From Spirochaetota bacterium (GTDB lineage: Bacteria; Spirochaetota; UBA4802; UBA5550): DNA of 64,000 nucleotides. Below the pieces are notes generated by a model that saw only the letters and a program-made list of their open reading frames with translations, did no database searches and was not told the origin of the DNA. The position numbers and the translations under genes are program-made. Within the stretch, counting starts at the first letter, position 1. Each line of letters opens with the position of its first letter. The DNA is taken from the NCBI GenBank assembly GCA_025457915.1, contig JALOTL010000014.1:5156-69155 (forward strand), in the 5' to 3' direction. Below are positions 20,696 to 46,094 of this stretch, piece by piece.

Positions 20696-20706
20696 TGTGT
20701 TACTCC

Positions 20707-29701: not shown

Positions 29702-31648
29702 TCATGCAATCGCTTCCTGCAATATCTCGACGACCCGTATCGGGTTCGCCTTTCCGCGGATTCTCACCAGCCCGATCATTCGATGCGGGTATTTGTCCCT
29801 GTCGGCGGCTTTATCGAAGCTTTCCATGCTCAACAGAATTTTTGTATTCAGTTTTTTGTTCAAGCCTTCGAGCCTCGATGCGGTGTTTACGGCATCGGAA
29901 ATAACGGTGGTATCCATCCTGTTCTCTTCGCCTATGGTCCCGAGGACGAGCGTTCCGGTGTGTATTCCCACCCCGATGTTGATGTCCGTTTCTCCGCAGA
30001 GCCTGTAGCAGTCGTTCAGTTCCCGGAGCGCCCGGTGCATCTGGATTGCGGCATTGATCGCATCGTCGACGGATTCCGGAAAGAGCGCCATGATCGCGTC
30101 CCCGATATACTTGTCTATGAACCCGTTGTTGCTTCTTATTATCGGGGCGATTTTTTGCAGGTATGAATTCAGGAAGTCGATGTTTTCCTTGGGCGACATC
30201 CGCTCCGAGATTTTGGTGAAGGAACGTATATCCGAAAAGAGCACCGTCATCTCCCTTATGCTCTGGTCCCCGAGTTTGATCTCCGCGATGTTCTCGCGGT
30301 CGAGGTACCGCAGAAACTCTTTCGGCACGAACCGCGAAAAAGATTCCGCCGTCTCTTTCTGCCGCTCGAACGCCTCCCTCTGCACCGACTCTTTTTCACG
30401 CTGCATGATCCTCATCCTGTCCGCGAGGGCGAGGGACATCAATATGATCTCGAACGCGGACCCCATGAGTATGGAATAATCGGTGAAGAGATTATGCGGC
30501 AGCAGACCGAAGTTTTTCATGGGCAGAATTATGAAGCCGCTGATTATGCCGATCCATGCGACGAGGTACAGACGCGCGGGCCGGTATCCCGTCATGAAGC
30601 TTTTAACGGCCGTGAAAAGCAATATGATCGAACCGGCGATCGAAAGGAAAGAAACGATCTGGACGGCGATGCGGTATTCCAGGAACCACGCGGCCGGGAT
30701 GTTGCATATGAAGAGGACGACCATGCCGAGGACCGCTTTATTCAGATACGGGGCGTTTTTGCGGGACTGGAGAAACAACCGGCCGAAGGTGTTCATGAAA
30801 ATGGCGAGTACAGATCCGGACATCGGGGTCGACATCATATGGGCCCAGATGCTTTCCTTCGGGAAATAAACTCCAGTCAGACCGTTAAGTGAAAGCTGGA
30901 AAACGGCGGCCGATAAAATGTAGAGGACATATACCAGGTAGTCCCTGGAACGGATCGTGATGAAAATGAACAGGTTGAGGAGCGCCATTACCAGCAGGAG
31001 GCCGAAGTAAAGCCCGAATACGTACTGCTCGTTCATGGCGGACTGGACGAAGGCCCGCGATTCCCACACTATGAGCGGGATGTTCATCGACCCCTCTGTT
31101 TTGATCCGCAGGTATACCTCATGGGTGCGGCCCGGTTCCGACGGTATCTGGACCACCGCGTTCCGGTAAGGCGTCTCGCGGTCATTGTAAGCGACCACGG
31201 TCCCGGCCTCTTTCTTCACCACGGTAGAACCGTCCTTTATATAGTATTGCACATCGTCGATGAGGGGATATCCCACCTCGAGGAGCAGCTTTTTTGTCTC
31301 CCTGATGTTTTTGACCGGTGCACAGGCATATTTGAAATAAATCCAGTATGCCGATCCGGTGAAACCGAAATTCAACGTTTTCTTTGTCAATGGCCTGAAC
31401 GGATCTTTTGTTTCCGAAAGCTCGAGCAGTTGCCTGAACGTCAGGTTCCCGGTTTTATCCTCATAATACGACACGCTCCTGTCGATCCGTTGCGACTGGA
31501 ACGGGCCGCTGAATTTTATCGTGCCCTTTTTTACGGTCTTTGAATCCGCTGCTGAAAGAGGGAACGAGAGGAGGACAATAAAAAACACGAATAAGGCGGT
31601 AAATACTCCCCTGTATCCCGATGCAGCGATGTTAATTCGCATGTTCAT
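29702..31648 (-). CDS. Sensor class-III adenylate/guanylate cyclase with 7TMR-DISM extracellular and 7TM receptor domains
   Basis: A signal peptide and a roughly 170-aa extracellular domain are followed by 7 TM helices. The cyclase catalytic core has ...VLFSDIRSFTKISE...FIDKYIGDAIMALF...GIHTGTLVLGTIGEENRMDTTVISDAVNTASRLE.... Confidence 0.8.
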   Translation of the reverse strand: MNMRINIAASGYRGVFTALFVFFIVLLSFPLSAADSKTVKKGTIKFSGPFQSQRIDRSVSYYEDKTGNLTFRQLLELSETKDPFRPLTKKTLNFGFTGSAYWIYFKYACAPVKNIRETKKLLLEVGYPLIDDVQYYIKDGSTVVKKEAGTVVAYNDRETPYRNAVVQIPSEPGRTHEVYLRIKTEGSMNIPLIVWESRAFVQSAMNEQYVFGLYFGLLLVMALLNLFIFITIRSRDYLVYVLYILSAAVFQLSLNGLTGVYFPKESIWAHMMSTPMSGSVLAIFMNTFGRLFLQSRKNAPYLNKAVLGMVVLFICNIPAAWFLEYRIAVQIVSFLSIAGSIILLFTAVKSFMTGYRPARLYLVAWIGIISGFIILPMKNFGLLPHNLFTDYSILMGSAFEIILMSLALADRMRIMQREKESVQREAFERQKETAESFSRFVPKEFLRYLDRENIAEIKLGDQSIREMTVLFSDIRSFTKISERMSPKENIDFLNSYLQKIAPIIRSNNGFIDKYIGDAIMALFPESVDDAINAAIQMHRALRELNDCYRLCGETDINIGVGIHTGTLVLGTIGEENRMDTTVISDAVNTASRLEGLNKKLNTKILLSMESFDKAADRDKYPHRMIGLVRIRGKANPIRVVEILQEAIA

Positions 31649-31873
31649 TGATCTCCATTGTAATTATCCGACATATATCCGTCATCCGGAGATTTCCGGT
31701 ACATAATGGACAGTATCCTATCTTCGATCCGCAAGCAAGCCGGATTTTACCCGCATCACCGGACCGGTTAAAAAACATGACAGCTCCCGAAAATTTTTTT
31801 CCGTTAAATTAATCTCATGCCGGCGCTGCTATCAGTTCCGCCCGGCGTCCGCAATCCATGATCTTCATAATAT

Positions 31874-32608
31874 TCATCCCTGCTTCACGGGCCCCTTGTA
31901 TGGTATCAGCATGGGGACCCGTTTTTGATAGTCTCGATATCCATCCCCGAAATCGGCGACCAGGTCCCGTTCCTCAAGAATCGTCCCGATGATGATCCAG
32001 CCTGTCCACATGATGTTAAACAGGAGCCTGTCTTGGCTGAGGTGAGGATTCGCCCATATCATGATCAGACTGAAAAAATAAAGAGGATGGCGGACCCATA
32101 GATAGGGGCCCTTCGCCGTGAGGGGCGGTATTTTTCGCGGCTTGCCGCTGATGAGACGGCGTATATTCAGGGTGCCGAATGGATCGAAAAACCCGAGCGA
32201 TTTGATGCCCCAGTAGAATCCGGCCATGCCGAGAATGAACATGAACCGGAGGGCCCAGTACCACGCGCCTTCCGCGGACAAAAACGCGTCCGCTGTCTGC
32301 CAGAAGATTATCATAAGGGCAAGGGGTATGCTCGAAGTTATGGAATAGAAAGCACCGTAATAATCGGCCGGTACAAGGTCCCGGAGCTTTCCGCGCATGC
32401 CTTTTCGCACAATTATGCTGTGCTGTAAAAAGAACAGCAGGCAGAGTGCGGCATCAACAACAAGCGCCTGGTCCTTTTGCAGCCCCAGGTCCACGAGGTT
32501 GAACGGCCCGAAGAACAGAAACGCATAAAAAGGAATCAAGGAGCCCGCCCCCAGGATGAGTGTTGTATACAGGAGTATATAGTTTTTTGCCTTGTTCATT
32601 TTTTTCAC
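31874..32608 (-). CDS. Membrane methyltransferase-family protein (isoprenylcysteine carboxyl methyltransferase / NnrU-like fold)
   Basis: It is a multi-TM protein with a ...LWVRHPLYFFSLIMIW...ILEERDLVADFGDGYRDYQKRVPMLIP C-terminal signature typical of the ICMT/PEMT family. Confidence 0.6.
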   Translation of the reverse strand: MKKMNKAKNYILLYTTLILGAGSLIPFYAFLFFGPFNLVDLGLQKDQALVVDAALCLLFFLQHSIIVRKGMRGKLRDLVPADYYGAFYSITSSIPLALMIIFWQTADAFLSAEGAWYWALRFMFILGMAGFYWGIKSLGFFDPFGTLNIRRLISGKPRKIPPLTAKGPYLWVRHPLYFFSLIMIWANPHLSQDRLLFNIMWTGWIIIGTILEERDLVADFGDGYRDYQKRVPMLIPYKGPVKQG

Positions 32609-32667
32609 CTCTTTTGCTGTAAATCATCAGGGCCACCCGCTTTTTTAAAAGCGGGGAGCGGCCGATT

Positions 32668-33480
32668 TTATTTTTTTCGCGCGTATACTTTGATGCTGGC
32701 GATGGAATCAAACAGGCTTTTGCCGGCCCCCCTGGTCATGCCGGTTTCTTCCCTTATCTTCTCCGCTATCGGATCATTGGCCCACAATTCCGCCGGTATT
32801 CTGTTTTCTTCGATGATCTGTACATCGCTGAAACCGGCATCGGCGATCATTTGAAGATAGCTTTCTTTCTTCACGGCCCCCGCAATGCAGCCGACGTAGG
32901 CGCTTACGGATTTTGCGACACTTTCCGGAAGATCCCCGGTAAGAACGACATCGGATATCATTATCCTGCCCCCTTCTTTGAGGACGCGATGGGATTCCCG
33001 AAAAACACGTTCTTTTCTAGTCGATAGATTGATCACGCAATTGGAGATGATCAGATCGACCGAGGAATCCGCCACCGGAAGGTTCTCGATTTCTCCAAGT
33101 CTGAATTCGACATTGCCGTGTCCGATCTTTACGGCGTTTTGCCTCGCCCTGTCAATCATTTCCGCCGTCATGTCGACCCCTATGACCTTTCCAGACGGAC
33201 CCACCTTTTGTGCGGCCAGGAAGCAGTCGATCCCGCCGCCGGAACCGAGGTCGAGAACGGTTTCGCCTTCCGAGATTGAAGCGAGCGCCGTCGGGTTGCC
33301 GCACCCCAGACCCATGTTCGCGTTTTCAGGGATGGATTTGAGTTCATCCTCTGAATATCCGACCTTGATGCTCGTCGCGCGGGCATTCGACTTTGCGGCT
33401 CCGCAGCAGGATGATGAGACATTTTGCGCGATTTTCGCGTATTCCCCGCGGACGATTTTTTGTTGACCGTTATTTTCCAT
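32668..33480 (-). CDS. arsM: Arsenite S-adenosylmethionine methyltransferase
   Basis: The product has the ArsM-specific motifs ...MGLGCGNPTALAS..., a SAM-binding VLDLGSGGGID and conserved Cys in ...YVGCIAGA.... Confidence 0.8.
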   Translation of the reverse strand: MENNGQQKIVRGEYAKIAQNVSSSCCGAAKSNARATSIKVGYSEDELKSIPENANMGLGCGNPTALASISEGETVLDLGSGGGIDCFLAAQKVGPSGKVIGVDMTAEMIDRARQNAVKIGHGNVEFRLGEIENLPVADSSVDLIISNCVINLSTRKERVFRESHRVLKEGGRIMISDVVLTGDLPESVAKSVSAYVGCIAGAVKKESYLQMIADAGFSDVQIIEENRIPAELWANDPIAEKIREETGMTRGAGKSLFDSIASIKVYARKK

Positions 33481-33506
33481 TGCAGCTCTCCTTGAATATA
33501 TTATTT

Positions 33507-33523
33507 AGTTGTATATTACAACT
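33507..33523. promoter_or_regulatory. Putative MarR operator 1 (GTTGTA-N3-TACAAC inverted repeat) upstream of arsM
   Basis: AGTTGTATATTACAACT has perfect 7-bp arms. It lies 27 bp upstream of the arsM start and shares GTTGTA-N3-TACAAC(C/T)ATAATG with the second site. Confidence 0.5.
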
Positions 33524-33536
33524 ATAATGCAGAAAA

Positions 33537-33998
33537 TTATTGCTTTTTGCAGCATTCGCCCGGATTGCAGCATCTATCCATTGATCTGATGAAAATTTCA
33601 AGGGATTGAATAACATCCTCCCTTTTGTTTTCCGGGATGGAATTACCCATATCAACCATGAAATCCGATATGCAATCCTGTACATTTTTAAAAACCGCCT
33701 TGCCCCTGCCCGTAAGATGCAGTTCAACCGCGCGCGAGTCGTGGGCGGATTGGGTTTTTTTAAGGTACCCCATTTTAACCAGAGGATCGACAAGCCTGGT
33801 TGTCGTGCTTTTCTCAACGGAAAGAAGGGTATGGAGAGCGGACATTTCCAGCGAACCGGTCCGCGCCACATAGCTGAGAATTGAATACTGCGTAAACGTC
33901 AAATCCTCGCAGAATTTCGATTCGGTCTGAAACACCCGCAGGGATATTATGAGGCGCCTGATAACCGATAAAAGCTGTTTGTCGTATGCAGTTTCCAT
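33537..33998 (-). CDS. MarR-family transcriptional regulator
   Basis: The winged-HTH region is ...LTFTQYSILSYVARTGSLEMSALHTLLSVEKSTTTRLVDPLVKMGYLKK...DSRAVELHLTGRG.... The start is chosen at METAYDK (33998) because a palindromic operator overlaps it. Confidence 0.75.
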   Translation of the reverse strand: METAYDKQLLSVIRRLIISLRVFQTESKFCEDLTFTQYSILSYVARTGSLEMSALHTLLSVEKSTTTRLVDPLVKMGYLKKTQSAHDSRAVELHLTGRGKAVFKNVQDCISDFMVDMGNSIPENKREDVIQSLEIFIRSMDRCCNPGECCKKQ

Positions 33999-34024
33999 TA
34001 TGGTTGTAATATACAACCATAATG
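33996..34024. promoter_or_regulatory. Putative MarR operator 2 (29-bp interrupted palindrome) overlapping the marR start codon
   Basis: CATTATGGTTGTAATATACAACCATAATG has 13-bp perfect arms around an ATA spacer, and it overlaps the marR ATG. This arrangement suggests autoregulation. Confidence 0.5.
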
Positions 34025-34389
34025 TCCGGACGTCAACTGTTTTTTAAGTTTTTTTTTACGGCGCATATTTTTATTAAACCGGCGGGAATACCGCGCGTCA
34101 CGATGCATGACCCGTCAATACTTCCAGCATCCGTGTGGTTAATTATTAATATTGGATCAAGTAAAAAACAATTAACATTCCCTGCCGGCATCCTGGCTGA
34201 GCCATGCCGCTCATTACAATATTATGGATTGAAAAATCTTATCAACAGCTGCGAATTTCCCCGGTAGCATTCAATAAAAAAACCGTAATACCAGCATATC
34301 GGCATGCGGATTTTCCCTCGATGTGCGGCACATAAAATGGGGGCCGGTCACACCGACCAGGGGGCGGTATATAGTTTCCGGTAAATTTT

Positions 34390-34417
34390 ATAGGCGCCGA
34401 TTCGAATCGGCGCCTAT
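34390..34417. repeat. 28-bp perfect palindrome (core GGCGCCGATTCGAATCGGCGCC), copy 1, downstream of paralog 1
   Basis: ATAGGCGCCGATTCGAATCGGCGCCTAT is self-complementary over 28 bp. It is followed at 34428-34500 by three degenerate 19-bp units (CCGATGCYTGTRTRTAACC). Confidence 0.7.
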
Positions 34418-34521
34418 GGATAAATCTCGATGCTTGTGTGTAACCCCGATGCCTGTATATAACCCGGCGCCTGTATGAAACGGGGCCCGTACAGGCAGGC
34501 ATCATCCCCGGCATCCCTTCC

Positions 34522-35415
34522 TCAGTTCTCCTTCCCTCCGCCGAAGCCTATGAAGTACGACGCAGCGAGGGTTACGCCGTAGAAATGGTCGTCCCGCAGG
34601 TGCTGTTTATTCGGGAAGTTATGCACGTACTGGTACCTGAACCCGGCTGATATGGTGGTTGAAATCGGCTCTATCAAGTACGCCAGGGAAGGAGTAAGGT
34701 TTACGCCCAGGCCGCCGATGTACCTGCGGGTGTTGTAATTCGGCCATACCATCCATATGGTAAATTTCGAGAGAACCACTAAAGCCGAGGTGTCGTAATC
34801 GGAAGCGATCGTGGACGTCTGGACTATTGAAATGTTGGAAATGAAATAAAGCCCGGCCGCGATATGGACATTCAGGTTTACGCCGAGTCCGGGCGAATAG
34901 GAGCCTATCGAGGTCTTCTTTGGCATGTACCCTACGCCGTCCTTTGCCCCGATGTCCACGATAGGGGTCTTGTATTTATAAGACTGGTATTTGAACCCGA
35001 TGTAGAGCTTCAGGTAATCCGTGACCTGGTATCCCACCGTGGAATCCATGTCGTATTTGACCGTCTTGCTCTTCATGTAAACCGGGTTCCAATACGGTAA
35101 TTGCGTCATATCGGTTATAAATTCCGTCATCAAGGACCTGTAGCGCCCCATCAGGAACGTGCCTGACAGGTATAATTTTCCGATCTTTAATGATGCAATC
35201 GGACCGTAGAGGAACTCCGGATCGATTTTGATGTTTTCCTTCGCGTGAATAAATACGATTTTTTTATCGGGCCTTGGATTGAAATAACCGGGCGACCACC
35301 ACGCGTACCAGGTCATGGCGCCGACGCTCAATCCGTCTTCAGCGGATGCGCTGGAAAAAAGTCCGAAACACACGGTTATAAGGAAAAGAAATATTGCCGT
35401 GATAGTGTTTTTCAT
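34522..35415 (-). CDS. Secreted / outer-membrane hypothetical protein, paralog 1 of a three-member family (YAWWSP motif)
   Basis: The signal peptide is MKNTITAIFLFLITVCFGLFSSASA. The mature part is near-identical to the product of 38838..39740, and the C-terminal ~110 aa are identical. Its composition resembles a beta-strand-rich OMP. Confidence 0.6.
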   Translation of the reverse strand: MKNTITAIFLFLITVCFGLFSSASAEDGLSVGAMTWYAWWSPGYFNPRPDKKIVFIHAKENIKIDPEFLYGPIASLKIGKLYLSGTFLMGRYRSLMTEFITDMTQLPYWNPVYMKSKTVKYDMDSTVGYQVTDYLKLYIGFKYQSYKYKTPIVDIGAKDGVGYMPKKTSIGSYSPGLGVNLNVHIAAGLYFISNISIVQTSTIASDYDTSALVVLSKFTIWMVWPNYNTRRYIGGLGVNLTPSLAYLIEPISTTISAGFRYQYVHNFPNKQHLRDDHFYGVTLAASYFIGFGGGKEN

Positions 35416-35797
35416 ATATTCACCTGCTTTATGATTTCCTTGAGCTGTAAAAAATCCTTTAATCGCCCTCTCTAACCCATAGGGCATAATTTTAAAGTTA
35501 TGAAAATAAAATTATTGTTATAACATGGTTTTTTTAAAATTTTCCATTAATTATTTCGTCATTTTAATCATCTGCAGGTTATAATCCTGGCCACATCTTA
35601 TTTCAATAATGTTTTCAATTAAAACTTAATATTAAAATTTGTCCGAGGACCGGTTATTTTAATTTATTATTGACAATAAACAATTTTTTCTAAAACTTGT
35701 TTGAATAAATAACCGGCATCTATTCACATTTATAAAGCGCAGGCAAGAACTGTTATGTCAATGACACCATGTGGAATTCCCATAAGGGTTTGATCAG

Positions 35798-37267
35798 ATG
35801 CTTTTTAATTCAATTGAATTTATTGTCTTTTTTCCTATAGTTACTTTTCTTTATTTTTTTCTCCCACATAAATACAGATGGTCCATGCTTCTTGCGGCAA
35901 GCTGCATTTTTTACATGGCCTTCATACCTGTCTATATTTTCATCCTTGGAATAACAATTCTAATAGATTATACAGCTGCATTATGGATAGCATCTTCCGA
36001 GGGTAGGAAAAAAAAATTATATTTAATCATTAGTATTATTTCAACTTGTCTTGTTTTATTTGTTTTCAAGTATTTTAATTTCTTTAACAGTAATTTTGCG
36101 AGAATTGCATCTTTCTTCCACTGGAAGTATCCGATAGAGATCATAAATATTATCCTTCCCATAGGGCTTTCTTTTCACACGTTTCAAAGCCTGAGCTATG
36201 TTATTGAGGTATACAGGGGAAACCAGAAACCGGAACGGCATTTCGGCGTATACGCGCTATATGTAATGTTTTATCCCCAGCTTGTTGCCGGACCTATCGA
36301 GAGGCCCCAAAATTTACTTCATCAATTCCATGAAGAGCATTTCATCAATTATTCGAGAATAACAGATGGACTCAAGCTGATGGCCTGGGGGATGTTCAAG
36401 AAGGTCGTAATTGCTGACAGATTGGCTATTCTTGTCAATCAGGTGTATAATGATCCGACAGTATATTCCGGCTTTCCATTGATTCTTGCGACTGTATTTT
36501 TTTCTTTTCAGATATATTGTGATTTTTCGGGATATTCGGATATAGCCATCGGTTCCGCCCAGGTTATGGGTTTTAGATTGATGGACAACTTCAACAGGCC
36601 CTATTTTTCCAAATCCGTAGCCGAATTCTGGAAGAGATGGCATATATCGCTGTCGAGCTGGTTCAGGGATTATCTCTATATTTCACTCGGGGGCAAAAAA
36701 GTCGGCAATAGCAGGTGGCAGTTTAATCTTTTTTTCACTTTCCTTGTAAGCGGATTATGGCACGGCGCCAATTGGACATTTGTCGCCTGGGGGGCGATTA
36801 ATGGGCTGTTTCTTTTATGCTCAATCTGGACTAAGAAATTAAGGGAAAAAATTGTCGCTGTCTCCGGAATTTACAGGTTCCCTAGGTTTTATAAATACAT
36901 GAGGGTATTGTTTGTTTTTTCATTAATCAGCTTCGCCTGGATTTTTTTCAGGGCAAAAAATATTTCGGATGCATATTACATAATAACCCACATGTTTAAA
37001 AATCTGATTAATGTGAATGTTATCTCCAAGAATCTGCTGATAATATCGCATGGATGGCTGAAATTGACCGGTTATGAAATAATTATTTCAATACTTATGA
37101 TATTGTTCATGGAAGCGGTTCACTTGATTCAAAGACACGGGAGCATCAGGCGCATGCTTTCCGAGAAGCCGGTATGGGTAAGATGGTCCATATATTTTAT
37201 AATTACATACAGTATCATATTTTTCGGCGTGTTCGATAATACTCAATTTATTTATTTTCAGTTTTAA
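35798..37267 (+). CDS. MBOAT-family membrane-bound O-acyltransferase (AlgI/DltB-like)
   Basis: Multi-TM helices are present with the conserved MBOAT His region (...FWKRWHISLSSWFRDYLYISLGG...). The gene is low-GC relative to its surroundings. Confidence 0.8.
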   Translation: MLFNSIEFIVFFPIVTFLYFFLPHKYRWSMLLAASCIFYMAFIPVYIFILGITILIDYTAALWIASSEGRKKKLYLIISIISTCLVLFVFKYFNFFNSNFARIASFFHWKYPIEIINIILPIGLSFHTFQSLSYVIEVYRGNQKPERHFGVYALYVMFYPQLVAGPIERPQNLLHQFHEEHFINYSRITDGLKLMAWGMFKKVVIADRLAILVNQVYNDPTVYSGFPLILATVFFSFQIYCDFSGYSDIAIGSAQVMGFRLMDNFNRPYFSKSVAEFWKRWHISLSSWFRDYLYISLGGKKVGNSRWQFNLFFTFLVSGLWHGANWTFVAWGAINGLFLLCSIWTKKLREKIVAVSGIYRFPRFYKYMRVLFVFSLISFAWIFFRAKNISDAYYIITHMFKNLINVNVISKNLLIISHGWLKLTGYEIIISILMILFMEAVHLIQRHGSIRRMLSEKPVWVRWSIYFIITYSIIFFGVFDNTQFIYFQF

Positions 37268-37276
37268 AATAAAAAC

Positions 37277-38314
37277 ATGGAAATTAAAAAAGTTAAAAAT
37301 TTACCGGTAATAAAAAAGCTCTTCATCAAGTTTTTTATATTGTCCGTTCCATTTTTAATGATATTGCTTTCATATGTAATACTTGACCCATTTAAAGTTA
37401 TTTACCATTATGATAATTATTTTAAGGATACGTTTTCTTATCTTAACAGAGATTTCATATCAACAGAAATTTTTTTAATGAATCGAGAAAAACACCGTTA
37501 TGATTCTTTCATATTTGGGAGTTCAAGGACACTTGCGTATGATCCGGCCGACTGGAAGCCTCACCTTGACGCTAATGATTCAATATTTTGCTTCGATGCA
37601 TCGGGTGAAACAATTTTTGGCATTGATAAAAAAATTCAATATATAGATGCCCTGGGTGATTCCGTAAAGAATGTTCTTATCATCATTTGTCCAGATGTTA
37701 GTTTCAACAAGGTGCAGAATATTAAGCAGCACCTTTTCATCAAGCACCCGCTCCTTTCCGGTGAATCATATTCCGGGTTTCATTTTATCTATTTAAAATC
37801 CTACCTGTCAAATGGCTTTTTCATCAGATACCTTGATTATTTAATATTCAGAAATTTTCGTCAATACATGATCGGTTATATAGATAATAAAAAATTTATG
37901 CATGACACAACCACTAATTTTATCACCATACTCGATTGGGAAGAGGAATTGAATGAAGATGAATCAAAATATTATTCATCAAGGAAGGATGTTTTTTTCA
38001 TAAGGCCTTCATTTAACCCTGAAGAAAAGAAAGGCATCAATGAGGGGATTGAAAAAATGCTTATAAATATCCGAAAAATATTCAATAAACACAAAACAAA
38101 TTATAAAATAATCATCAGCCCTCTATATTATCAAAAAAAAATAAATTTTTCCGACCTGGAAAAACTAAAAAATATTTTTGGCCAGAAAAATGTTTTCGAT
38201 TATTCAGGAAAAAATAAAATCACTGAAAATGTTTACAACTATTATGAACCATCCCACTACCGCACAAAAGCAGGAAAACAAATAATCAATGAGATTTATA
38301 GATACCGTCAATAA
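37277..38314 (+). CDS. Hypothetical membrane-anchored protein, likely the O-acyltransferase partner of the MBOAT (AlgJ/AlgX/DltD-like role)
   Basis: It has an N-terminal TM anchor and is located immediately downstream of the MBOAT gene. It is low-GC and no catalytic motif could be assigned. Confidence 0.45.
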   Translation: MEIKKVKNLPVIKKLFIKFFILSVPFLMILLSYVILDPFKVIYHYDNYFKDTFSYLNRDFISTEIFLMNREKHRYDSFIFGSSRTLAYDPADWKPHLDANDSIFCFDASGETIFGIDKKIQYIDALGDSVKNVLIIICPDVSFNKVQNIKQHLFIKHPLLSGESYSGFHFIYLKSYLSNGFFIRYLDYLIFRNFRQYMIGYIDNKKFMHDTTTNFITILDWEEELNEDESKYYSSRKDVFFIRPSFNPEEKKGINEGIEKMLINIRKIFNKHKTNYKIIISPLYYQKKINFSDLEKLKNIFGQKNVFDYSGKNKITENVYNYYEPSHYRTKAGKQIINEIYRYRQ

Positions 38315-38722
38315 TCTTTCGCTTTTTTTCATCAATCTGAATCAAGAAACCATGCAGTCTCCCGATCGCTTTTAATATGCAAATCCCCAGTCAGCAAACC
38401 ATAGATGTTTAGACAAAGATAGGATTATGCGGTGAACTGAAGACCGGGAAGAAAGAGCAGAACGAGTTTCAATTTTGCATTACAGTTCATGATGCATTAT
38501 TGATTCGAACACCAATTGAATTAATTGAAACATCAATAAAGGCTACAAAACAGGAAATGGTGAAAGCAAGTAATGATGATTTTCTGAATGCAGCTTCAAC
38601 ACAGGCCACCACTCCGGGGGATGTGGTATTGTTCTCCGGGTACCGTCGCGGCAGGCGCGTTGTTCGCGGATATAAACTTCACCGACCAGGGATCGGTATA
38701 TATTTTCCGGTAAATTTTATAT

Positions 38723-38741
38723 GCGCCGATTAAAATCGGCG
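38723..38741. repeat. Palindrome copy 2 (variant GCGCCGATTAAAATCGGCG) downstream of paralog 2, with the same flanking TTCCGGTAAATTTTATA and 19-bp tandem units
   Basis: The stem is CGCCGAT/ATCGGCG with loop TAAA. Downstream are CCCGACGCTTGTGCATAACC, CGATGCTTGCGTGTAACC and CGGGGCCTGTATGGGCC. Confidence 0.6.
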
Positions 38742-38837
38742 TCCGTGTGCAGAGCCCGACGCTTGTGCATAACCCGATGCTTGCGTGTAACCCGGGGCCT
38801 GTATGGGCCGGCATCATCCCCGGTAATATCCCCCCCA

Positions 38838-39740
38838 TCAGTTCTCCTTCCCTCCCCCGAAGCCTATAAAATATGACGCCGCGAGGGTTACGCCGTAGAA
38901 ATGGTCGTCGCGCAGGTGCTGCTTGTTCGGGAAGTTATGCACGTACTGGTACCTGAACCCGGCCGATATGGTGGTTGAAATCGGTTCTATCAAGTACGCC
39001 AGGGAAGGCGTAAGGTTTACGCCCAGCCCGCCGATGTACCTGCGGGTGTTGTAATTCGGCCATATCATCGGGATGTTGTTTCCCGGGGTGAAAGGGAGAA
39101 GCACGAAGGCCGAGGTGCCGTAATCGGAAGCGATCGTGGACGTCTGGACTATTGAAATGTTGGAAATGAAATAAAGCCCGGCCGCGATATGTACGTTCAG
39201 GTTTACGCCCAGCCCGGGCGAATAGGAGCCTATCGAGGTCTTCTTGGGTATGTACCCTCCCCCGCCCCTTGCCCCGATATCCACGAAAGGGGTCTTGTAT
39301 TTATAAGACTGGTATTTGAACCCGATATAGAGCTTCAGGTAATCCGTGACAGGGTATCCCACGGTGGAATCCATGTCGTATTTTATCGTATTGTTCTTCA
39401 TGTAAACCGGGTTCCAGAACGGCATAAGGATCGGATCGGTGATGAATTCAGTCGTCACTGATTTGTAGCGCCCCATCAGGAACGTGCCTGACAGGTATAA
39501 TTTTCCGATCTTTAACGATGCGACCGGTCCGTAGAGGAACTCCGGGTCGATTTTGATGTTTTCCTTCGCGTGAATAAATACGATTTTTTTATCGAACCTT
39601 GGTGTGAAATAACTGGGCGACCACCACGCGTACCAGGTCATGGCGCCGACGCTCAATCCGTCTTCAGCGGACGCGCTGGAAAGAAGGCCTCCGAAGACAA
39701 AAAACAGCGCGAGACATATGACGTTCACGGTCGTTTTCAT
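38838..39740 (-). CDS. Secreted / outer-membrane hypothetical protein, paralog 2 (near-identical to paralog 1)
   Basis: The signal peptide is MKTTVNVICLALFFVFGGLLSSASA. The mature sequence differs from paralog 1 only in the central region, and the C-terminal halves are identical. Confidence 0.6.
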   Translation of the reverse strand: MKTTVNVICLALFFVFGGLLSSASAEDGLSVGAMTWYAWWSPSYFTPRFDKKIVFIHAKENIKIDPEFLYGPVASLKIGKLYLSGTFLMGRYKSVTTEFITDPILMPFWNPVYMKNNTIKYDMDSTVGYPVTDYLKLYIGFKYQSYKYKTPFVDIGARGGGGYIPKKTSIGSYSPGLGVNLNVHIAAGLYFISNISIVQTSTIASDYGTSAFVLLPFTPGNNIPMIWPNYNTRRYIGGLGVNLTPSLAYLIEPISTTISAGFRYQYVHNFPNKQHLRDDHFYGVTLAASYFIGFGGGKEN

Positions 39741-39806
39741 TTATTTCTCCTTGCTTTCCGGAAACCTTGCCGCTTCCGCCCCATAAACAAATATCGGCTT
39801 CCTATA

Positions 39807-39828
39807 GGCGCCGATTCGAATCGGCGCC
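39807..39828. repeat. Palindrome copy 3 (GGCGCCGATTCGAATCGGCGCC), upstream of paralog 2
   Basis: The core is identical to copy 1. It is again preceded by TATA and followed by the related units CGTGTATTGTAACTCGGCGCCTGTGCGTAACCC. Confidence 0.7.
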
Positions 39829-40073
39829 CGTGTATTGTAACTCGGCGCCTGTGCGTAACCCTGTGCGGGGCCGTCATAATCACAATACAGCATTCTGCAG
39901 GATATCAATATTTGATGACAAAAATAAACATATGTCAATTATTATTTATCCCCGGGCGGCCCCCCCTTCAATAAACCGTTTTAATTTCAATTCTCTTCCA
40001 TAATAAATATAAGTCTTGAAAATTAAGCGCGCCTGTGCAATAAAAGACTCTGTCCAATGAGAGGTGTTCTGAA

Positions 40074-41903
40074 ATGGAAAACATTGAAGCCGTACGCAAG
40101 GACCTTAAAAATTTCAAAAACCTGTTCATCCTGTACACCGAGGGCGTGAGCTACCTCATACTGGTGCCCCTCGTGGTGCTCTACATCTGGGTCGACCTCG
40201 ACCTCAGGTACGACCAGGGAATGAACATGCTCAAGTTCACGGTCATTGCTGTGGTCATATCCGTGATCACCACGAACATCAACGACATGATAGTGCTTTC
40301 GCCGATAATAAAATACTTCAAGAAGCTCCTTGCCGGCGAACCGGCCCCCGAAGATGAATACGCCGCGGCGCAGAAAAGGTTTTTCTCCCTGCCCTACATA
40401 CACGGCATCGGGTCGTACCTCCGCTGGGTGTTCGGCCTCCTCCTGGCCATACCGCCCTTCATCCTCACAACCGACCTTACGAACATGCAGGTGGTGAACA
40501 CCCTTTTCATATTCATGGCCATCCCGCCGCTCGGGGGGATACTCTTCTTCTTCCTCACGGAGATATACATCCAGAAGCTCCTGAACAGGGGGATATTCAC
40601 CCGCCTCGTCATAAAGGGGTTCACGAAAAGCATGAGCTTCAGGCGGAGGCTGTTCCTGTCCATACTCACGATCGTCACGATCCCGGTCATCGGGATAAGC
40701 GGGTACTACACCATCCTCCTCGAGTCCGCGAACGCGCTCGACAGGGTTTCCTTCCTCAAGTTCGGGGCAGTCGTTCTTTTCGGCGTGGTGGTGGCCGCGA
40801 GCGTCACGCTCACAATGTGGCGATCGATCAAGGACAAGATCGGCCTGATATCCGCGTTCCTCACGCGCATCGGCGCGGGCGACCTTTCCGCGCCCAAGGG
40901 GGTCATCGCGGTCATGGACGAGCTCACGAAGATCAACCAGACCGTCTATCTGATGAAGAAGAACATCACGGAGATGATAGCTGACATAAATTCAATTTCC
41001 TCGAAGCTCGACGACTCGACGCACGAGATATCCAGCATCACGCAGTCCTTCACCGACGTGACGCAGAACCAGGCGGCCACGGTCGAGGAGGTCACCGCCA
41101 CCATCGAGGAGATCTCCGCCGGGATGGACGGGATCACCTCCGGCGCCCAGGTCCAGCTCAAGAGCCTGCTGGCCCTTCTCGCCAGGATGGGCGAGCTCTC
41201 GGGCACCATCCGGGAGATGTCGCAGGAGATCACCAGCGCCACCCAGCTCGCGTCGTCCATGAACACCGACGTGGCGAGCGGCGAACTGTCGCTCCGCGGG
41301 ATGAACGGGAGCATGCTGAAGATCAGCGAGAGCTCCCAGCAGATGACAGGCATCGTGAACATCATCAACGACATATCCGACAAGATCAACCTCCTGTCGC
41401 TGAACGCCTCCATCGAGGCGGCCCGCGCCGGCGACTCCGGCAGGGGCTTCGCGGTCGTCGCGGACGAGATATCCAAGCTCGCCGAGAACACCGCGTCGAG
41501 CGTCAAGGACATAGACTCCCTCATCAAGGCCATGGACGCGGAGATCCGCAAGGGGATCTCCGACGTGTCCGACGTCGTCGAGAGGATGGGCAGGATAACT
41601 TCCGGCATCAACTCGATGGGAGGCATGGTCGGGAAGATATCGGGCATCATGCAGAAGCAGGTCGAGACGAACGAGATGGTCGACAGGGAGGCCACCAGCG
41701 TCAAGGCCAGGTCCGAAGAGATCGAGACCGCGACCATGGAGCAGAAGATCGCCATCGGAGAGGTCGTCAGGTCGGTCACGAAAATCAACGAGCTCACCCA
41801 GACCATATCAGCCGGTTCCGAGGAGATCACGGCCAACACAATGGAGAACGCGAAGATAGCCGACATACTGAAGAAAAAGGTCGACCAGTTCAAGCTCACG
41901 TGA
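40074..41903 (+). CDS. Methyl-accepting chemotaxis protein with multi-TM N-terminal sensor, HAMP and MCP signalling domains
   Basis: A hydrophobic N-terminal half is present. The highly conserved MCP signalling motif is ...NLLSLNASIEAARAGDSGRGFAVVADEISKLAENTASS.... Confidence 0.85.
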   Translation: MENIEAVRKDLKNFKNLFILYTEGVSYLILVPLVVLYIWVDLDLRYDQGMNMLKFTVIAVVISVITTNINDMIVLSPIIKYFKKLLAGEPAPEDEYAAAQKRFFSLPYIHGIGSYLRWVFGLLLAIPPFILTTDLTNMQVVNTLFIFMAIPPLGGILFFFLTEIYIQKLLNRGIFTRLVIKGFTKSMSFRRRLFLSILTIVTIPVIGISGYYTILLESANALDRVSFLKFGAVVLFGVVVAASVTLTMWRSIKDKIGLISAFLTRIGAGDLSAPKGVIAVMDELTKINQTVYLMKKNITEMIADINSISSKLDDSTHEISSITQSFTDVTQNQAATVEEVTATIEEISAGMDGITSGAQVQLKSLLALLARMGELSGTIREMSQEITSATQLASSMNTDVASGELSLRGMNGSMLKISESSQQMTGIVNIINDISDKINLLSLNASIEAARAGDSGRGFAVVADEISKLAENTASSVKDIDSLIKAMDAEIRKGISDVSDVVERMGRITSGINSMGGMVGKISGIMQKQVETNEMVDREATSVKARSEEIETATMEQKIAIGEVVRSVTKINELTQTISAGSEEITANTMENAKIADILKKKVDQFKLT

Positions 41904-42337
41904 CGCGGGGACGGCACATGAAACGCATACACGGCAGGCTCCTCATCGCGACGGGCGTAATACATTTAATCTGCACTTTCCTGCCGGGCGTATTCGGCAG
42001 GCAGTTCGCCGCTTTTTCCAGGACCGCCTTTTTCTCGATAAGCGAAGGGATACTCTCCTTCCCGATGTTCGGGGGATCAATCGATTACGAGGCCTTCGCC
42101 GCTTTCTGGTTCTTTTACGCGGGGCCGTTCATCATCGGGTGCGGGCTCCTCGTCGACAGGATCGAAAAGCTTGAGGGCCGCCTGCCCCTGTACCTTTCCG
42201 CGTTCATCACCGCGGTCACGCTGATCGGGTCCTACATGATACCCGCGTCCGGCATGACCGTCATCATGATTCCCCAGTGCGTTTACATGTTAGCGAGGAG
42301 CCGGAAGCCCGGGAATTTCCGGGGGAATGGGTCGTAG
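41900..42337 (+). CDS. Hypothetical small membrane protein
   Basis: It has 3-4 hydrophobic helices and overlaps the MCP stop. The alternative start MKRIHG lies at 41918. Confidence 0.45.
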   Translation: MTRGRHMKRIHGRLLIATGVIHLICTFLPGVFGRQFAAFSRTAFFSISEGILSFPMFGGSIDYEAFAAFWFFYAGPFIIGCGLLVDRIEKLEGRLPLYLSAFITAVTLIGSYMIPASGMTVIMIPQCVYMLARSRKPGNFRGNGS

Positions 42338-42348
42338 ACTCCGCCGGT

Positions 42349-42873
42349 CTACTTCATCTTCACCTGCACTATGCCTGATATCGGAATGGTAACGACCCCG
42401 CTGGAGGTATTCATCTTCACGTTCTTACTGTCCTGCAGATAAATCACGCCCAGGAGCCTGGTACCGTCGTCCAGCGTGACCTCCTCGAGCTTGTGGTAAT
42501 ATTCCTTGATCTCCCTGTCGGTCTCCAGGATCGGCGCCTTCTCCACGTCCGGGACGTATAAATATACCGGCAGGCCCCTGGCCATCTTACCCAGATACTT
42601 GCCGTTCCCAGGGATGAGCCTGCACTTCGCCACTGTCTGCATTGGAAACGTCGCGGTCATTATCACGACCCTGTCGCCGATCCGCACGTACAGCCTGCTG
42701 CCCATGAAAATTTTCTGGCCGGCATTGGGGGACTGCACGATGATCTCTCCCGTGGATTGATTCACGCTGCCGATTTTGCCTAAAAGCTCCCCGTCAACTG
42801 ATAATAGCGGCGCTTCCAGAAGCATTATTGAAATGAACGCCGTTCCCATATGGAAAAATAAAAAATTTTTCAT
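42349..42873 (-). CDS. Secreted hypothetical protein, paralog A of a two-member family
   Basis: A signal peptide is present. The N-terminal domain LDGELLGKIGSVNQSTGEIIVQ...LYVRIGDRVVIMTATFPMQTVAKCRLIP is about 60% identical to the product of 44375..45127. Confidence 0.55.
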   Translation of the reverse strand: MKNFLFFHMGTAFISIMLLEAPLLSVDGELLGKIGSVNQSTGEIIVQSPNAGQKIFMGSRLYVRIGDRVVIMTATFPMQTVAKCRLIPGNGKYLGKMARGLPVYLYVPDVEKAPILETDREIKEYYHKLEEVTLDDGTRLLGVIYLQDSKNVKMNTSSGVVTIPISGIVQVKMK

Positions 42874-43218
42874 GCAGTCCGTCCCTGTATAAAATCGATA
42901 AGATGGTCCATGAATTGCGCTGTTTTTAACGTATATCGTTTTCATATTCCGCGGGCTGAAATAATCAAGAAGGATTTATTCCCGGGAAAATAAAAACACA
43001 TTTATTGCTTCTTTCAATACGGAAGAGGCCGGATGCGGACAGTCATCCGCCTTATATCCGGCGTACAGACTGCTGGAAATAAGGTATCGGGAATCTTTCC
43101 AATGCGTGCAGGATCATCGGAATATCCAATAATATCATCTCACCCTGCCCTGGCCCCTCCCATCCAGGGAGCGGGATAAGGATATCCGGCAAAAGTCCCG
43201 CCATAAGCCAACGCGCCC

Positions 43219-44205
43219 TTATATCTTGAAATTATACGTAACCGACAGCACGACCCCGTAGAAATAGTCAGTAGTGCCGTTGAAAACATCCCTGCCTGAA
43301 TACCCTAAAATTTTATTCTGAATCAGCATGGTAAACACGTTATATGTGCTGTCGTAGTAGCTGTGCACCAGCCTGCTGCAGTACATCTTCAGCATCTGGA
43401 AGCGGAACCCCGCGGACACGGTGACCGATGCGGCCGTAATATAATACGCGAGGGAAAGGCTCCCGTTCATTCCGGCGGCGTTGAATTTCTGGTTCTGCCT
43501 GTTCATGAATGCGTTCAACGACAGGGGGCTGAACGCCTTTTCGTTCCAGTCGACGTACGACCTCATGTAAACGCCTGAAAGGTTTCCCAGCAGGTACAGG
43601 TCCTCCGCGACCGGCAGGACCGTGCCCAGCCCCAGTCCCGCGCCGTATCCGTCTGATTCGGCCGTGTAGTTGTACAGCCAGAAATCCGCGGCCGTCGGGG
43701 CGCTGGTCAAAAACGTTTTCAACGGCCTGCTGCTGTAAGAGTAGCCCTGGTACTTGAACCCGCAGAAAATCTTCAGGTACGGCAGGGGGGAATAATTGAC
43801 CGTGGTGTCCGAATCGTATTTTTTCATCCGGAGCGAGACGTTCTGGGAGATAATGTCCGGGCCGGGATATAATTTCATGCTTCCCCCGGTTTGGCCGTAG
43901 GGAGAGCCCATGGTGAACACGGAGGAGAAGCTCCATTCGTCCGAGACCTTCACTGACACCGCGGGCCCGTATAAAAACGAACCGGACTCCTTCCATCTGG
44001 ACCGCAAGTAGATTTCACCGTATTCCATATAGTGCAGGGCCTTGATCCTGTTCGAGTACCTGTTCTGGAAATAATTCTTGAAATACGGCGACCACCACGC
44101 GTACCAGGCCATCGGTCCCGCGCTGATTTCCAGCGCACGTGCGGGTCCCATAAAAGAGTTTAGCAGAAACAACGAAAACAGGGCAAGCAGGGTGATCTTC
44201 TTCAT
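43219..44205 (-). CDS. Secreted / outer-membrane hypothetical protein, divergent paralog 3 of the YAWWSP family
   Basis: The signal peptide is MKKITLLALFSLFLLNSFMGPARA. The motifs MAWYAWWSPYF and LKIFCGFKYQGYSY are shared with paralogs 1 and 2. Confidence 0.55.
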   Translation of the reverse strand: MKKITLLALFSLFLLNSFMGPARALEISAGPMAWYAWWSPYFKNYFQNRYSNRIKALHYMEYGEIYLRSRWKESGSFLYGPAVSVKVSDEWSFSSVFTMGSPYGQTGGSMKLYPGPDIISQNVSLRMKKYDSDTTVNYSPLPYLKIFCGFKYQGYSYSSRPLKTFLTSAPTAADFWLYNYTAESDGYGAGLGLGTVLPVAEDLYLLGNLSGVYMRSYVDWNEKAFSPLSLNAFMNRQNQKFNAAGMNGSLSLAYYITAASVTVSAGFRFQMLKMYCSRLVHSYYDSTYNVFTMLIQNKILGYSGRDVFNGTTDYFYGVVLSVTYNFKI

Positions 44206-44374
44206 ATGACCGCGCATCCAGTCACGCTTCCGGAGCGTTTTTTTTTACGGTCTAATGATTTTCCGGAGCTTGTATTTGTCAATTTGTAAATTTCCGGGGC
44301 TGAACGCCGCGCCCGTTTTTACGCGCCGCAAGATTTCCGGAAGGCTTTTTTTAATTGCCGTGAAAATCCGGCGC

Positions 44375-45127
44375 CTAGTTGGGAGTCCTCACGTACTGGT
44401 AGCGGACGCTTTCCGGGTCCGGAACCCTTGCCTTGAATCCATTATACGCCTCCGGGACCATCCCGGTCCACAGGTACAGCAAGCCCCACACCTCCACGGT
44501 TTTGCCGTCTGCGCTTATTTTTCCCTGCACGTCCCCTACCTGCACGCTGCTGTAGTTTTCCCTGTTCGGGTACGGATTGTAGCGGGCCGTAAAGGTCCTG
44601 CCTGTAAGTCTTCCCTTGAAAAGCACCCACTTGATATAAGCGGAATGTCCCGGGCCCGCGGCAGGGCAGTTATGGTACGCCGTGATGTCGTCCCCCGCTA
44701 TCTCGAAGGTGATCCTGTTGCACGAGGTATCGCCCTTGATCATCCACAATCCGCCGAGATCAACCCCTCTTTTCGAAACGGCCGGGGCCGCGGGGGTCTC
44801 GACTCCCTTCACGTAGGCATACACCCTCATTTCCCTCGTTATGCTCCTGAGTCTTGCGGCGTGTTCCGGAAGGAGCCTGCATTTCGCCGTGGCCTGCATC
44901 GGGAACACAGCGGTCATAACGACCGGCTCGCCGTTCAGCCTGACGTAAAGCTTCATTCCCATGCGTATCTTCTCCCCGGCCTCGCCCGCCTGGACGATGA
45001 TCTCGCCCGTGGCAGCGTTAACGGAGCTCACCTTGCCGATAAGCTCCCCGTCAAGTGAATGGAGATCCGGATGCGTGAAAATCAAACTGAAAAGGATTAC
45101 TGACGCGGGAATGATCATTTTTTTCAT
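44375..45127 (-). CDS. Secreted hypothetical protein, paralog B (longer C-terminus)
   Basis: The signal peptide is MKKMIIPASVILFSLIFT. The N-terminal domain is shared with paralog A. Confidence 0.55.
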   Translation of the reverse strand: MKKMIIPASVILFSLIFTHPDLHSLDGELIGKVSSVNAATGEIIVQAGEAGEKIRMGMKLYVRLNGEPVVMTAVFPMQATAKCRLLPEHAARLRSITREMRVYAYVKGVETPAAPAVSKRGVDLGGLWMIKGDTSCNRITFEIAGDDITAYHNCPAAGPGHSAYIKWVLFKGRLTGRTFTARYNPYPNRENYSSVQVGDVQGKISADGKTVEVWGLLYLWTGMVPEAYNGFKARVPDPESVRYQYVRTPN

Positions 45128-45268
45128 GATAATTCTCCATGGGGAAATGATTTGGATATTTATCCGGTAGCACAACCGGCGGGGATGTCAAGATTTATAT
45201 TGCGGAAAATATTCCGGGCGCGCGCATCCGTTAATGGAAAATTATTTCATGACGCGTGAAATATCAAA

Positions 45269-45463
45269 CTATTTCTTCCCCGGTTTTCCCAGGGCTAAAA
45301 AGACCGTCACGCTGATGACGGCCAGGATCACCATGCAAGCGGTCATGCCCGTCTTGAAGTGCCGAGGGACCCCGGGCCTCGCCAGTAGCTGGTACCACCA
45401 CCCTGCAAAAACAATATTGACCAGGGCAATTATGGCCGCAAGCAGCACCCTGTCGCGATTCAT
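45269..45463 (-). CDS. Possible small (64 aa) two-TM membrane protein
   Basis: It is an ORF with two hydrophobic segments and no recognisable family. Support is weak. Confidence 0.3.
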   Translation of the reverse strand: MNRDRVLLAAIIALVNIVFAGWWYQLLARPGVPRHFKTGMTACMVILAVISVTVFLALGKPGKK

Positions 45464-45521
45464 TTTCCGACCTCCTTCATTTCCCTCCGGAAAGCCGGCC
45501 GCGGTCGGGAATTCATTCCTC

Positions 45522-46094
45522 TCACGCGCTTTTTATAACGACCGCGCGGCTGAAAAAGACCCCCGGTTCTTCGATGATTTCAAATCCGGTCCGCCTGATC
45601 ATGTCCTTGACTTTTACGAAATCGTTTTTTGAAACATGGAATTTCGGCTCGACGATCAAGGCTTTCCCGTCCCGCTTCAGCAGGGTCCTGATTTCCCTTA
45701 AAAAGGCCTCCTGGTCCGGCACCTCGTGGAGCATGTAAAACACCAGTATGAAATCGTTTTCCACGGACAGGCCGGTCCCGTCGCTTCCGCATTTGTGGAG
45801 CCTGACCGTATCCGCGAGACCGGCGCCGTCTATTTTTTTCCTCAATATCTTGAGCATATCCTCCTGGAGATCGGCCGCGGTCACTTTCCCCGATTTACCT
45901 GCCAGCCTCGCCATTTCCATCGTGAAAAACCCCGGGCCGCAGCCCAGGTCGAGAACAGTCATCCCTTCCCTGATATAAGGCTTCAGCATCTTTCCCGGGT
46001 CATGGAACAGCCTGCGTATATTCAAATCCAGCGCACCGGCATGCTCGGCCGGGCATACTCTGTTTTTCCTGTCCGGTTCCATATTTTTCTCCAT
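45522..46094 (-). CDS. Class I SAM-dependent methyltransferase
   Basis: Motif I is VLDLGCGPGFF, with downstream acidic and motif II/III spacing. The start is chosen at MEKNMEPDRK. Confidence 0.7.
   Translation of the reverse strand: MEKNMEPDRKNRVCPAEHAGALDLNIRRLFHDPGKMLKPYIREGMTVLDLGCGPGFFTMEMARLAGKSGKVTAADLQEDMLKILRKKIDGAGLADTVRLHKCGSDGTGLSVENDFILVFYMLHEVPDQEAFLREIRTLLKRDGKALIVEPKFHVSKNDFVKVKDMIRRTGFEIIEEPGVFFSRAVVIKSA

Follow-up and report, generated by a model that had tools for sequence, protein, structure and literature searches.

Does a pair of near-identical genes on either side of foreign-looking DNA mark an island that is being excised and amplified, or simply the place where that DNA landed? 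The question is raised by a 64,000-nucleotide stretch (the window) of contig JALOTL010000014.1, positions 5,156 to 69,155, in the Spirochaetota metagenome-assembled genome (MAG) GCA_025457915.1. Two paralogous genes in this window, here called A and B, lie on the same 79-kb contig 3.4 kb apart and flank an AT-rich block with an O-acyltransferase gene of the MBOAT family and a presumed partner. The initial annotation attributed identical 3' halves of the two genes to recent gene conversion or duplication, and considered deletion or amplification of the block by repeat recombination likely. The explanation favoured here, with a probability of about 0.7, is that A and B form a tandem pair within a Spirochaetota family of small barrel proteins, and that a probably acquired two-gene cassette for envelope acylation was inserted between them. 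Coordinates are collected in Table 1.

Divergence of genes A and B

Both minus-strand open reading frames (ORFs) lie at the coordinates first given for them, and their proteins are 85.7% identical overall, with 244 of 276 residues identical in the mature part. The direct repeat that the genes form is real and far beyond chance. BLAST aligns 34351–35361 with 38680–39686 at 87% identity over 1027 columns, and a repeat search found blocks of 300 nt and 239 nt at 92–93% identity and a flank block of 96 nt at 81%, at a spacing of 4316–4329 bp. In a global alignment the repeat extends over ~1.0 kb (a length of ~1.2 kb had been proposed); it opens where the signal peptide ends and closes at a terminator-like hairpin that lies ~170 bp beyond the stop codon. 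Homology starts abruptly at the last signal-peptide codons. Most of the signal-peptide codons and the sequence upstream of the genes are unalignable, with 60% identity and a synonymous divergence (dS) of ~1.6, and upstream resemblance is limited to the area of the ribosome-binding site. The mature coding sequences are 90% identical and the 3' flanks 73% identical with gaps counted; the conservation reported downstream of the genes is therefore there, over ~170 bp only and not the ~230 bp described. Overall divergence is ~10%, and the longest identical run is 73 bp.

An identical C-terminus had been reported as ~110 amino acids long. The identical tail exists, though it comprises the last 74 amino acids; on its N-terminal side a divergent loop of 19 residues with an indel of 3–4 residues interrupts the identity, and another 42 identical residues lie ahead of the loop. 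The identity is one of protein and not of DNA – there are 13 nucleotide differences in the last 225 nt, and the 74-residue tail has 12 synonymous differences with no non-synonymous divergence (dN = 0). By the Nei-Gojobori method, dS in successive segments of the mature part is 0.23, 0.24, 0.22 and 0.28, the last value being that of the C-terminal segment (the last 74–77 codons, dN = 0). Since dS in the tail is at least as high as elsewhere in the gene, its protein identity reflects constraint and not recent gene conversion. The nucleotide alignment, set beforehand as the check that could refute the first interpretation, found the genes more diverged than the protein view had implied, and the inference of a recent conversion or duplication from 3' identity does not hold.

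The heterogeneity between A and B is one of loops against scaffold, not of 5' against 3' ends. Over the whole mature part, dS is 0.246 and dN is 0.054. The loop-side segments L2–L4 have a dS of 0.52, a dN of 0.20 and a dN/dS of 0.4, while the remainder of the mature part, with all four loop-side segments excluded, has a dS of 0.19, a dN of 0.006 and a dN/dS of 0.03. The barrel scaffold and the C-terminus are thus under strong purifying selection. Of 32 differences between the mature proteins, 23 are in four long loops totalling 84 residues, against 9 among the remaining 191 residues (Fisher p = 3e-7); the nine are mostly at strand ends that adjoin loops. The observed dN/dS gives no support to positive selection on the loops, which was also considered.

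The beta-barrel prediction that had been proposed as a check came out as expected. The AlphaFold2 model (pLDDT 79, pTM 0.73) has a signal helix followed by a barrel of ~10 long strands, with long loops alternating with short turns, and the protein has an N-terminal hydrophobic helix and then a cleavage site between ASA and ED. A and B are therefore predicted to be outer-membrane beta-barrel proteins, and by analogy with such proteins their long loops would be surface-exposed. Both end in YFIGFGGGKEN. Matches of A and B to the Pfam model OMP_b-brl (PF13505) score 19.3 and 18.2 bits, under the cutoff of 28.7; gene C, a third relative, matches neither PF13505 nor any other Pfam model, and no NCBIfam model matches the barrel proteins. 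A family profile built from 21 relatives and searched against 1.8 billion representatives collected 917 clusters at 50% identity, and gave nothing significant against the sequences of solved structures. Two members of the family bear precomputed PF05150 matches. All eight family loci found in species-representative genomes are from Spirochaetota, and tandem pairs of barrel genes also occur in L009 and L011.

The acyltransferase cassette

The AT-rich block does contain an MBOAT gene and a true partner, as had been suspected. The MBOAT protein matches Pfam PF03062 with 95.7 bits against a cutoff of 27 (E 4e-27). Its best NCBIfam match is to DltB (TIGR04091), at 139.4 bits, far under the equivalog cutoff of 375. 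The protein ends in FIYFQF, which fits the acyl-shuttle motif FXYXXF. This motif is fused to the MBOAT protein in MBOAT–SGNH systems that use acyl-CoA, and not in Dlt systems; PatA auto-acetylates the tyrosine of the motif, after which PatB takes the acyl group (PMC12148441). The FIYFQF ending was found in all six of the homologues that were read, from several phyla. Two histidines, in RWH(282)ISLS and GLWH(322)GANW, are also kept in six homologues and are candidate equivalents of His315 in PatA.

The partner gene starts 9 bp past the MBOAT stop codon on the same strand. Its product has no Pfam or NCBIfam match. The structural model (pLDDT 95.5) has a transmembrane helix at residues 9–36 and an alpha/beta domain of the SGNH fold, and DltD and PatB are among its top structural matches; DltD gives the longest alignment (205–209 residues), and identity to the solved SGNH proteins is just 8–16%. 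There are 360 homologues. In 43 sequences S83 (FGSSR) and H327 are invariant and E324 (ExxH) is nearly so, making S83 and H327 a putative catalytic Ser/His pair. Because an MBOAT protein ending in FIYFQF adjoins an SGNH-fold partner with a conserved Ser and His, the cassette is a complete MBOAT–SGNH acyl-transfer module. By analogy with PatA/PatB and AlgI/AlgJ, the MBOAT protein would load an acyl group, probably acetyl, from cytoplasmic acyl-CoA onto its C-terminal tyrosine, and the SGNH partner would then hand the group to an extracytoplasmic glycan. In the window no polysaccharide-synthesis genes flank the cassette; around it are the two barrel genes, a gene for a MarR regulator and one for a methyl-accepting chemotaxis protein (MCP).

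A contig from Nitrospirota (L014, 5001–7527) encodes an MBOAT protein that is 69% identical to that of the window and ends in FIYFQF, followed by a 351-amino-acid protein with GSS, GxSG and DGMH-like motifs and no BLAST similarity to the window partner. Closely related MBOAT proteins therefore seem to pair with different families of SGNH-like partners.

The cargo looks foreign, as first described. The block between A and B has a GC content of 0.28–0.41, against ~0.5 in its flanks. GC content at third codon positions (GC3) is 0.435 in the MBOAT gene and 0.32 in the partner gene, compared with 0.67–0.76 in genes A, B and C and 0.88 in the MCP gene. Those partner homologues that have a source name are mostly from Bacteroidota (Algoriphagus, Bacteroidia, Bacteroidales, Ilyomonas and others), at no more than 50% identity. 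MBOAT homologues that are 62–72% identical are scattered among Nitrospirota, Margulisiibacteriota, Clostridia, Omnitrophota, Elusimicrobiota and Bacteroidia. The two genes are also adjacent in L003, L004 and L018/L019, in DNA of 26–33% GC; in L004, which is from Algoriphagus, the cassette is inside a cluster rich in glycosyltransferases. At the eight other Spirochaetota loci of the barrel family, the barrel gene has no cassette beside it. Composition, the low GC of homologous cassettes and the phyletic pattern thus support horizontal acquisition well, and the cassette was probably acquired in this way.

Relatives of the pair and rival explanations

Evidence from synteny rests on two short metagenome contigs, L001 and L002, which were retrieved by exact-protein look-up. 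Scans for other close relatives – among genome contigs with protein B, and among metagenome contigs by alignment or with a conserved 26-nt DNA word – had no usable yield. L002 has a single barrel gene, P0003, whose product is 64–65% identical to B. The loop variants of gene B and its upstream region match P0003, and the conserved block upstream of B (39907–39944) is 36/38 identical in L002, so gene B is the positional counterpart of this single-copy gene. L001 (JGI 3300010429) contains the 3' end of another barrel-family gene, a 45-bp spacer and then P0002, a gene from another metagenome than gene A. P0002 is in the 93% identity class relative to A (same 90% cluster) and has A's loop variants. 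A related population therefore holds a tandem pair with no island, in which the A-type gene is probably co-transcribed with the gene upstream of it.

The last 102 nt of the upstream fragment in L001 are identical to the 3' end of P0002 itself (1–104 and 942–1043). Either the sequence was converted or duplicated very recently in that population, or the contig end is bounded by a repeat. Very recent conversion does occur in the barrel family, though not in the window.

In the window the signs of exchange are older. Among sites informative for the four genes, 26 group A with P0002 and B with P0003, with clusters in the loops and at the very 3' end; 19 unite A with B and P0002 with P0003, and these are scattered through the scaffold; 7 group A with P0003 and B with P0002. 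Judged from these patterns the pair is a mosaic, in which the loops place A with P0002 and the scaffold sites place A with B. Because the site patterns conflict and scaffold dS is lower, an older, patchy conversion between A and B may have homogenised the scaffold and spared the loops. An exchange of loop alleles is an equivalent reading of the same mosaic.

These relatives suggest an order of events. The cassette most likely came horizontally from a low-GC donor and entered the spacer of a pre-existing tandem pair. The insertion would have separated A from the promoter of B and given it an AT-rich upstream region, and gene A would now use a promoter in the inserted DNA. The divergent intergenic region between A and the MBOAT gene (35416–35797) now has to supply a promoter for each of them; it has several weak sigma-70-like matches, and only ~10–20 nt around the ribosome-binding site of A resemble the 5' untranslated regions of B and of L001. 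On this reading the direct repeat is a by-product of the cassette's landing site and not part of a mobile element. The repeats that flank the cassette are host genes, not copies of an insertion sequence. Because identical runs reach 73 bp, recombination between A and B is possible, and with it a loss of the cassette that leaves one hybrid gene.

Several points weigh against this reconstruction. No sampled sequence is close enough to point to a donor, identity reaching 72% for the MBOAT protein and 50% for the partner. Neither an integrase nor a transposase marks the insertion, and the two cassette genes are the only ORFs in the 3.3-kb island. No tRNA gene occurs in the window, and there is no target-site duplication; the best word shared by the boundaries is a 10-mer inside the MBOAT coding sequence. 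Whether the cassette was inserted here or lost from the L001 lineage is judged solely from composition and phyletic pattern. The L001 contig, 1.6 kb long, begins with 102 nt that match the 3' end of its own gene exactly, so its upstream copy is seen as a fragment only and misassembly is possible. The upstream gene in L001 lacks the 170-bp flank that B carries, and the two arrangements therefore differ by more than the island. The second assembly described below may come from the same sample as the MAG. For the barrel proteins, the model was built from an alignment of only 21 sequences, the assignment of loops to the outside or the periplasm is assumed from canonical outer-membrane proteins, and a loop dN/dS of 0.4 is no demonstration of positive selection.

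The cassette could instead be ancestral at this locus, with a low GC content that is specific to its genes, and have been lost by deletion in the L001 lineage. The missing mobility genes and insertion scars are consistent with this, as is the patchy GC content of the window overall (31–63%). So is a locus of another Spirochaetota MAG (L008) in which an MBOAT gene lies ~5 kb from a barrel-family gene. That gene, however, has the GC content of its own genome, encodes a protein only 50% identical to the window's and is separated from the barrel gene by several genes in mixed orientation, and at the eight other family loci no cassette adjoins the barrel gene. The GC3 of 0.32–0.44 fits the low-GC genomes that have homologous cassettes and differs widely from the GC3 of the barrel and MCP genes beside it. 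A type I-E cas operon, a typically mobile system, makes up the other large low-GC block of the window. An ancestral cassette is therefore considered unlikely.

The L008 locus, from Spirochaetota JTS-AC98, ends inside its MBOAT gene (11107–12798). The encoded protein is 50.6% identical to the window's over 237 amino acids, and the distance to the barrel gene is ~5.3 kb. A conserved linkage between barrel and MBOAT genes was considered and rejected, as this is the sole other case and there are intervening genes.

The explanation first proposed – that recent conversion or duplication made the 3' halves identical and that the 1-kb repeats actively excise or amplify the island as a switch – is quite unlikely. 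The repeats are indeed direct, ~1 kb long and identical in runs of up to 73 bp, and the 19 scaffold sites that unite A with B, together with the lower scaffold dS, point to some concerted evolution. The tandem copies in L001 share their last 102 nt, so conversion does occur in the family. A recent event is nevertheless hard to reconcile with a tail dS of 0.28, no lower than the gene average, and with repeats that are just 87% identical. Also against this explanation, the second assembly repeats the same layout with one mismatch in 16.8 kb, no hybrid of A and B was found in the protein collection, and L001 keeps two genes where excision would give a single hybrid.

A further possibility concerns the module in the 3' flanks of A and B. 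A palindrome and repeated units had been described downstream of both genes, and both are present, the units recurring with a period of 18–19 nt in 2–3 copies. In the orientation of the genes the module consists of a short GC hairpin, 18-nt units, a palindrome, an A/T-rich stretch and a terminator-like hairpin. Gene A has tandem units of 18–19 nt at 34428–34495, a perfect 28-bp palindrome (ATAGGCGCCGATTCGAATCGGCGCCTAT) at 34390–34417 and the terminator-like hairpin at 34358–34342. Gene B has 18-nt units at 38746–38805, a degenerate palindrome at ~38723–38743 and the hairpin at 38698–38680. The palindrome is also found 3' of the barrel genes in L001 and L002. A third copy, missed in the initial annotation, lies ~65 bp upstream of the ATG of B, in the presumed 5' leader of that gene, and is oriented like the two 3' copies; its palindrome is a perfect 22-mer, and it is ~80% identical to the flank of gene A over 59 nt. 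The core CCGATTNNAATCGG has three sites in the 64 kb, all at genes A and B, where 0.03 would be expected. Other Spirochaetota loci of the barrel family lack the module, and a search of Rfam at E <= 1 over 33.9–40.2 kb gave no match to it. A dispersed repeat, like repetitive extragenic palindromes or miniature inverted-repeat transposable elements, was rejected as an interpretation, as the only three sites in the window are all at A and B.

The simplest reading is that the module is a 3' untranslated and terminator region that was duplicated together with the barrel gene, the upstream copy being the relic of a former member of the array. It is a long shot that the module is instead a dedicated cis-element – bound by a regulator or an RNA-binding protein, or acting as a signal for recombination – that coordinates or shuffles this barrel subfamily, with the cassette perhaps captured there and recombination between A and B acting as a combined surface switch. 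If so, one such event would at once drop the envelope-acylation genes and make a loop-chimeric barrel.

Little credence is given to the idea that the barrels and the MBOAT–SGNH pair are one functional unit with a selected arrangement, in which the barrels export or bind the acylated polymer or are its target. The genes are physically adjacent, an MBOAT gene and a barrel gene are loosely associated in L008, and the operons for alginate and cellulose acetylation include outer-membrane components. The gene orientations in the window, however, are divergent and convergent and not those of an operon. In L003, L004, L014 and L018 the cassette is found with no gene of this barrel family, the barrel family in turn is found with no cassette in seven of eight loci and in L001 and L002, and a 10-strand barrel of the OpcA type would be small for a polysaccharide channel.

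Chimeric assembly, with a low-GC fragment of another organism stitched between the repeat copies of a MAG, might be suspected from a compositionally foreign insert bounded by repeats, and is very unlikely because the copies (87–93% identical) are too diverged to collapse, unique sequence ties each of them to the insert, and a separate 38-kb contig (L013, JGI 3300037461) matches window 30507–47267 with the same gene order and one mismatch (99.994% identity over 16.8 kb).

The locus and its comparison with known systems

Table 1. Features of the locus around genes A and B, in window coordinates
Feature	Position	Strand	Description
MarR gene	33537–34016	-	
Gene A 3' flank	34351–34521	-	Homologous to the gene B flank (73%, gaps counted) and to 3' flanks in L001 and L002
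Gene A (MCU0848452.1, MUD12_11250)	34522–35415	-	297 aa; signal peptide ends at ASA, before ED; predicted 10-stranded outer-membrane beta-barrel
Divergent intergenic region between A and MBOAT	35416–35797		AT-rich, GC 0.29
MBOAT O-acyltransferase gene	35798–37267	+	489 aa
SGNH partner gene	37277–38314	+	345 aa; N-terminal transmembrane helix and SGNH-fold domain
Spacer between cassette and gene B 3' flank	38315–38679		GC 0.42
Gene B 3' flank	38680–38837	-	Module as in the gene A flank
Gene B (MCU0848455.1, MUD12_11265)	38838–39740	-	300 aa; gene A paralogue
Third copy of the flank module	39804–39859	-	One 18-nt unit and perfect palindrome GGCGCCGATTCGAATCGGCGCC
Conserved block upstream of gene B	39907–39944	-	TAATAATTGACATATGTTTATTTTTGTCATCAAATATT; 36/38 identical upstream of P0003 in L002
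MCP gene	40074–41903	+	Separated from gene B by a 333-bp divergent intergenic region
Gene C	43219–44205	-	Divergent third barrel-family member, 30% identical to B

The third, more divergent family member that had been noted is thus gene C. It is bracketed by a pair of minus-strand paralogues (42349–42945 and 44375–45175) that are 51.5% identical over 99 amino acids. These have no Pfam match and match weakly to models of Leptospira lipoproteins (LipL45 and the LA_0442 N-terminal domain). The neighbourhood thus has a second pair of direct-repeat genes with other sequence between them.

The conserved block upstream of gene B is promoter-like (TTGACA), and a TGACA-N12-TGTCA motif that overlaps the TTGACA box is a candidate binding site for a regulator. 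The MarR gene is almost exactly bracketed by a 22-nt inverted repeat at 33508–33529 and 33996–34017 (GTTGTATATTACAACTATAATG and CATTATGGTTGTAATATACAAC, 95% complementary), which may be a pair of operator sites. Small ORFs that overlap the flanks (34242–34514 and 38596–38838) were rejected as genes because their reading frame is not kept between the copies. An ORF search of the spacer between the cassette and the flank of gene B gave no convincing candidate.

Elsewhere in the window GC content is 61–63% over 1–7000, 37% at 47000–48000 and 42–47% at 53000–57000. The largest low-GC block (18107–27262, GC 0.31–0.46, GC3 ~0.33) consists of a minus-strand type I-E CRISPR-Cas operon that encodes Cas3, Cse1, Cas7 (CT1975), Cas5, a Cas6e-like protein (CRISPR_assoc) and Cas1, with a divergent WYL/WCX/HTH regulator beside it at 26291–27262. 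The patchy composition suggests a mosaic region.

The layout of the locus is real but ordinary, and it opens no long-standing question; the cassette and the barrel pair belong to kinds that are already known. Its interest is that a minimal MBOAT–SGNH cassette for surface acylation can apparently move between phyla, here landing in a tandem pair of outer-membrane-protein genes. It also flags two families that have no qualifying Pfam or NCBIfam model, the Spirochaetota barrels with their loop-restricted variation (917 clusters) and the SGNH partners (360 homologues), which pair with FIYFQF-tailed MBOAT proteins. In addition it offers a caution – identical protein segments of paralogues need a check of synonymous sites before recent gene conversion is invoked.

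Among known small outer-membrane barrels, the closest to A and B are Neisseria OpcA (2vdf), the Legionella major outer-membrane protein (9nh1, PF05150) and pOmpT (7xw0). They share with these a signal peptide and the alternation of long loops with short turns, at a sequence identity of 8–16%, and they differ from known small barrels in ending with YFIGFGGGKEN and not with an aromatic residue.

Paralogue families shaped by intragenomic gene conversion include babA/babB of Helicobacter, opa of Neisseria and tpr of Treponema. Unlike these, the barrel pair has two close copies only, with no silent donor cassettes and no phase-variation repeat tracts, the loop dN/dS is 0.4 and the organism is uncultured. 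Like them, A and B are paralogues in close linkage whose scaffold is conserved and whose variation is mainly in predicted surface loops, and phylogenetic conflict along the genes points to conversion.

The cassette resembles DltB and DltD in the best NCBIfam match of its MBOAT protein and in the N-terminal anchor of its partner. It is unlike the Dlt system, which D-alanylates teichoic acids, in having no dltA, dltC or dltX nearby, in its score of 139 against 375 and in the shuttle motif fused to its MBOAT protein. From PatAB and AlgIJ it differs in a partner that matches no Pfam or NCBIfam model and in having neither an ape1-like esterase gene nor genes of the AlgF, AlgX or AlgK type near it; it stands alone, outside any polysaccharide operon, unlike its Algoriphagus homologue. 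The likeness to PatAB and AlgIJ lies in the arrangement and the parts – an MBOAT protein with the shuttle motif fused to it adjoins an extracytoplasmic SGNH-fold protein, and this partner is anchored in the membrane, keeps a conserved Ser and His and counts PatB among its best structural matches.

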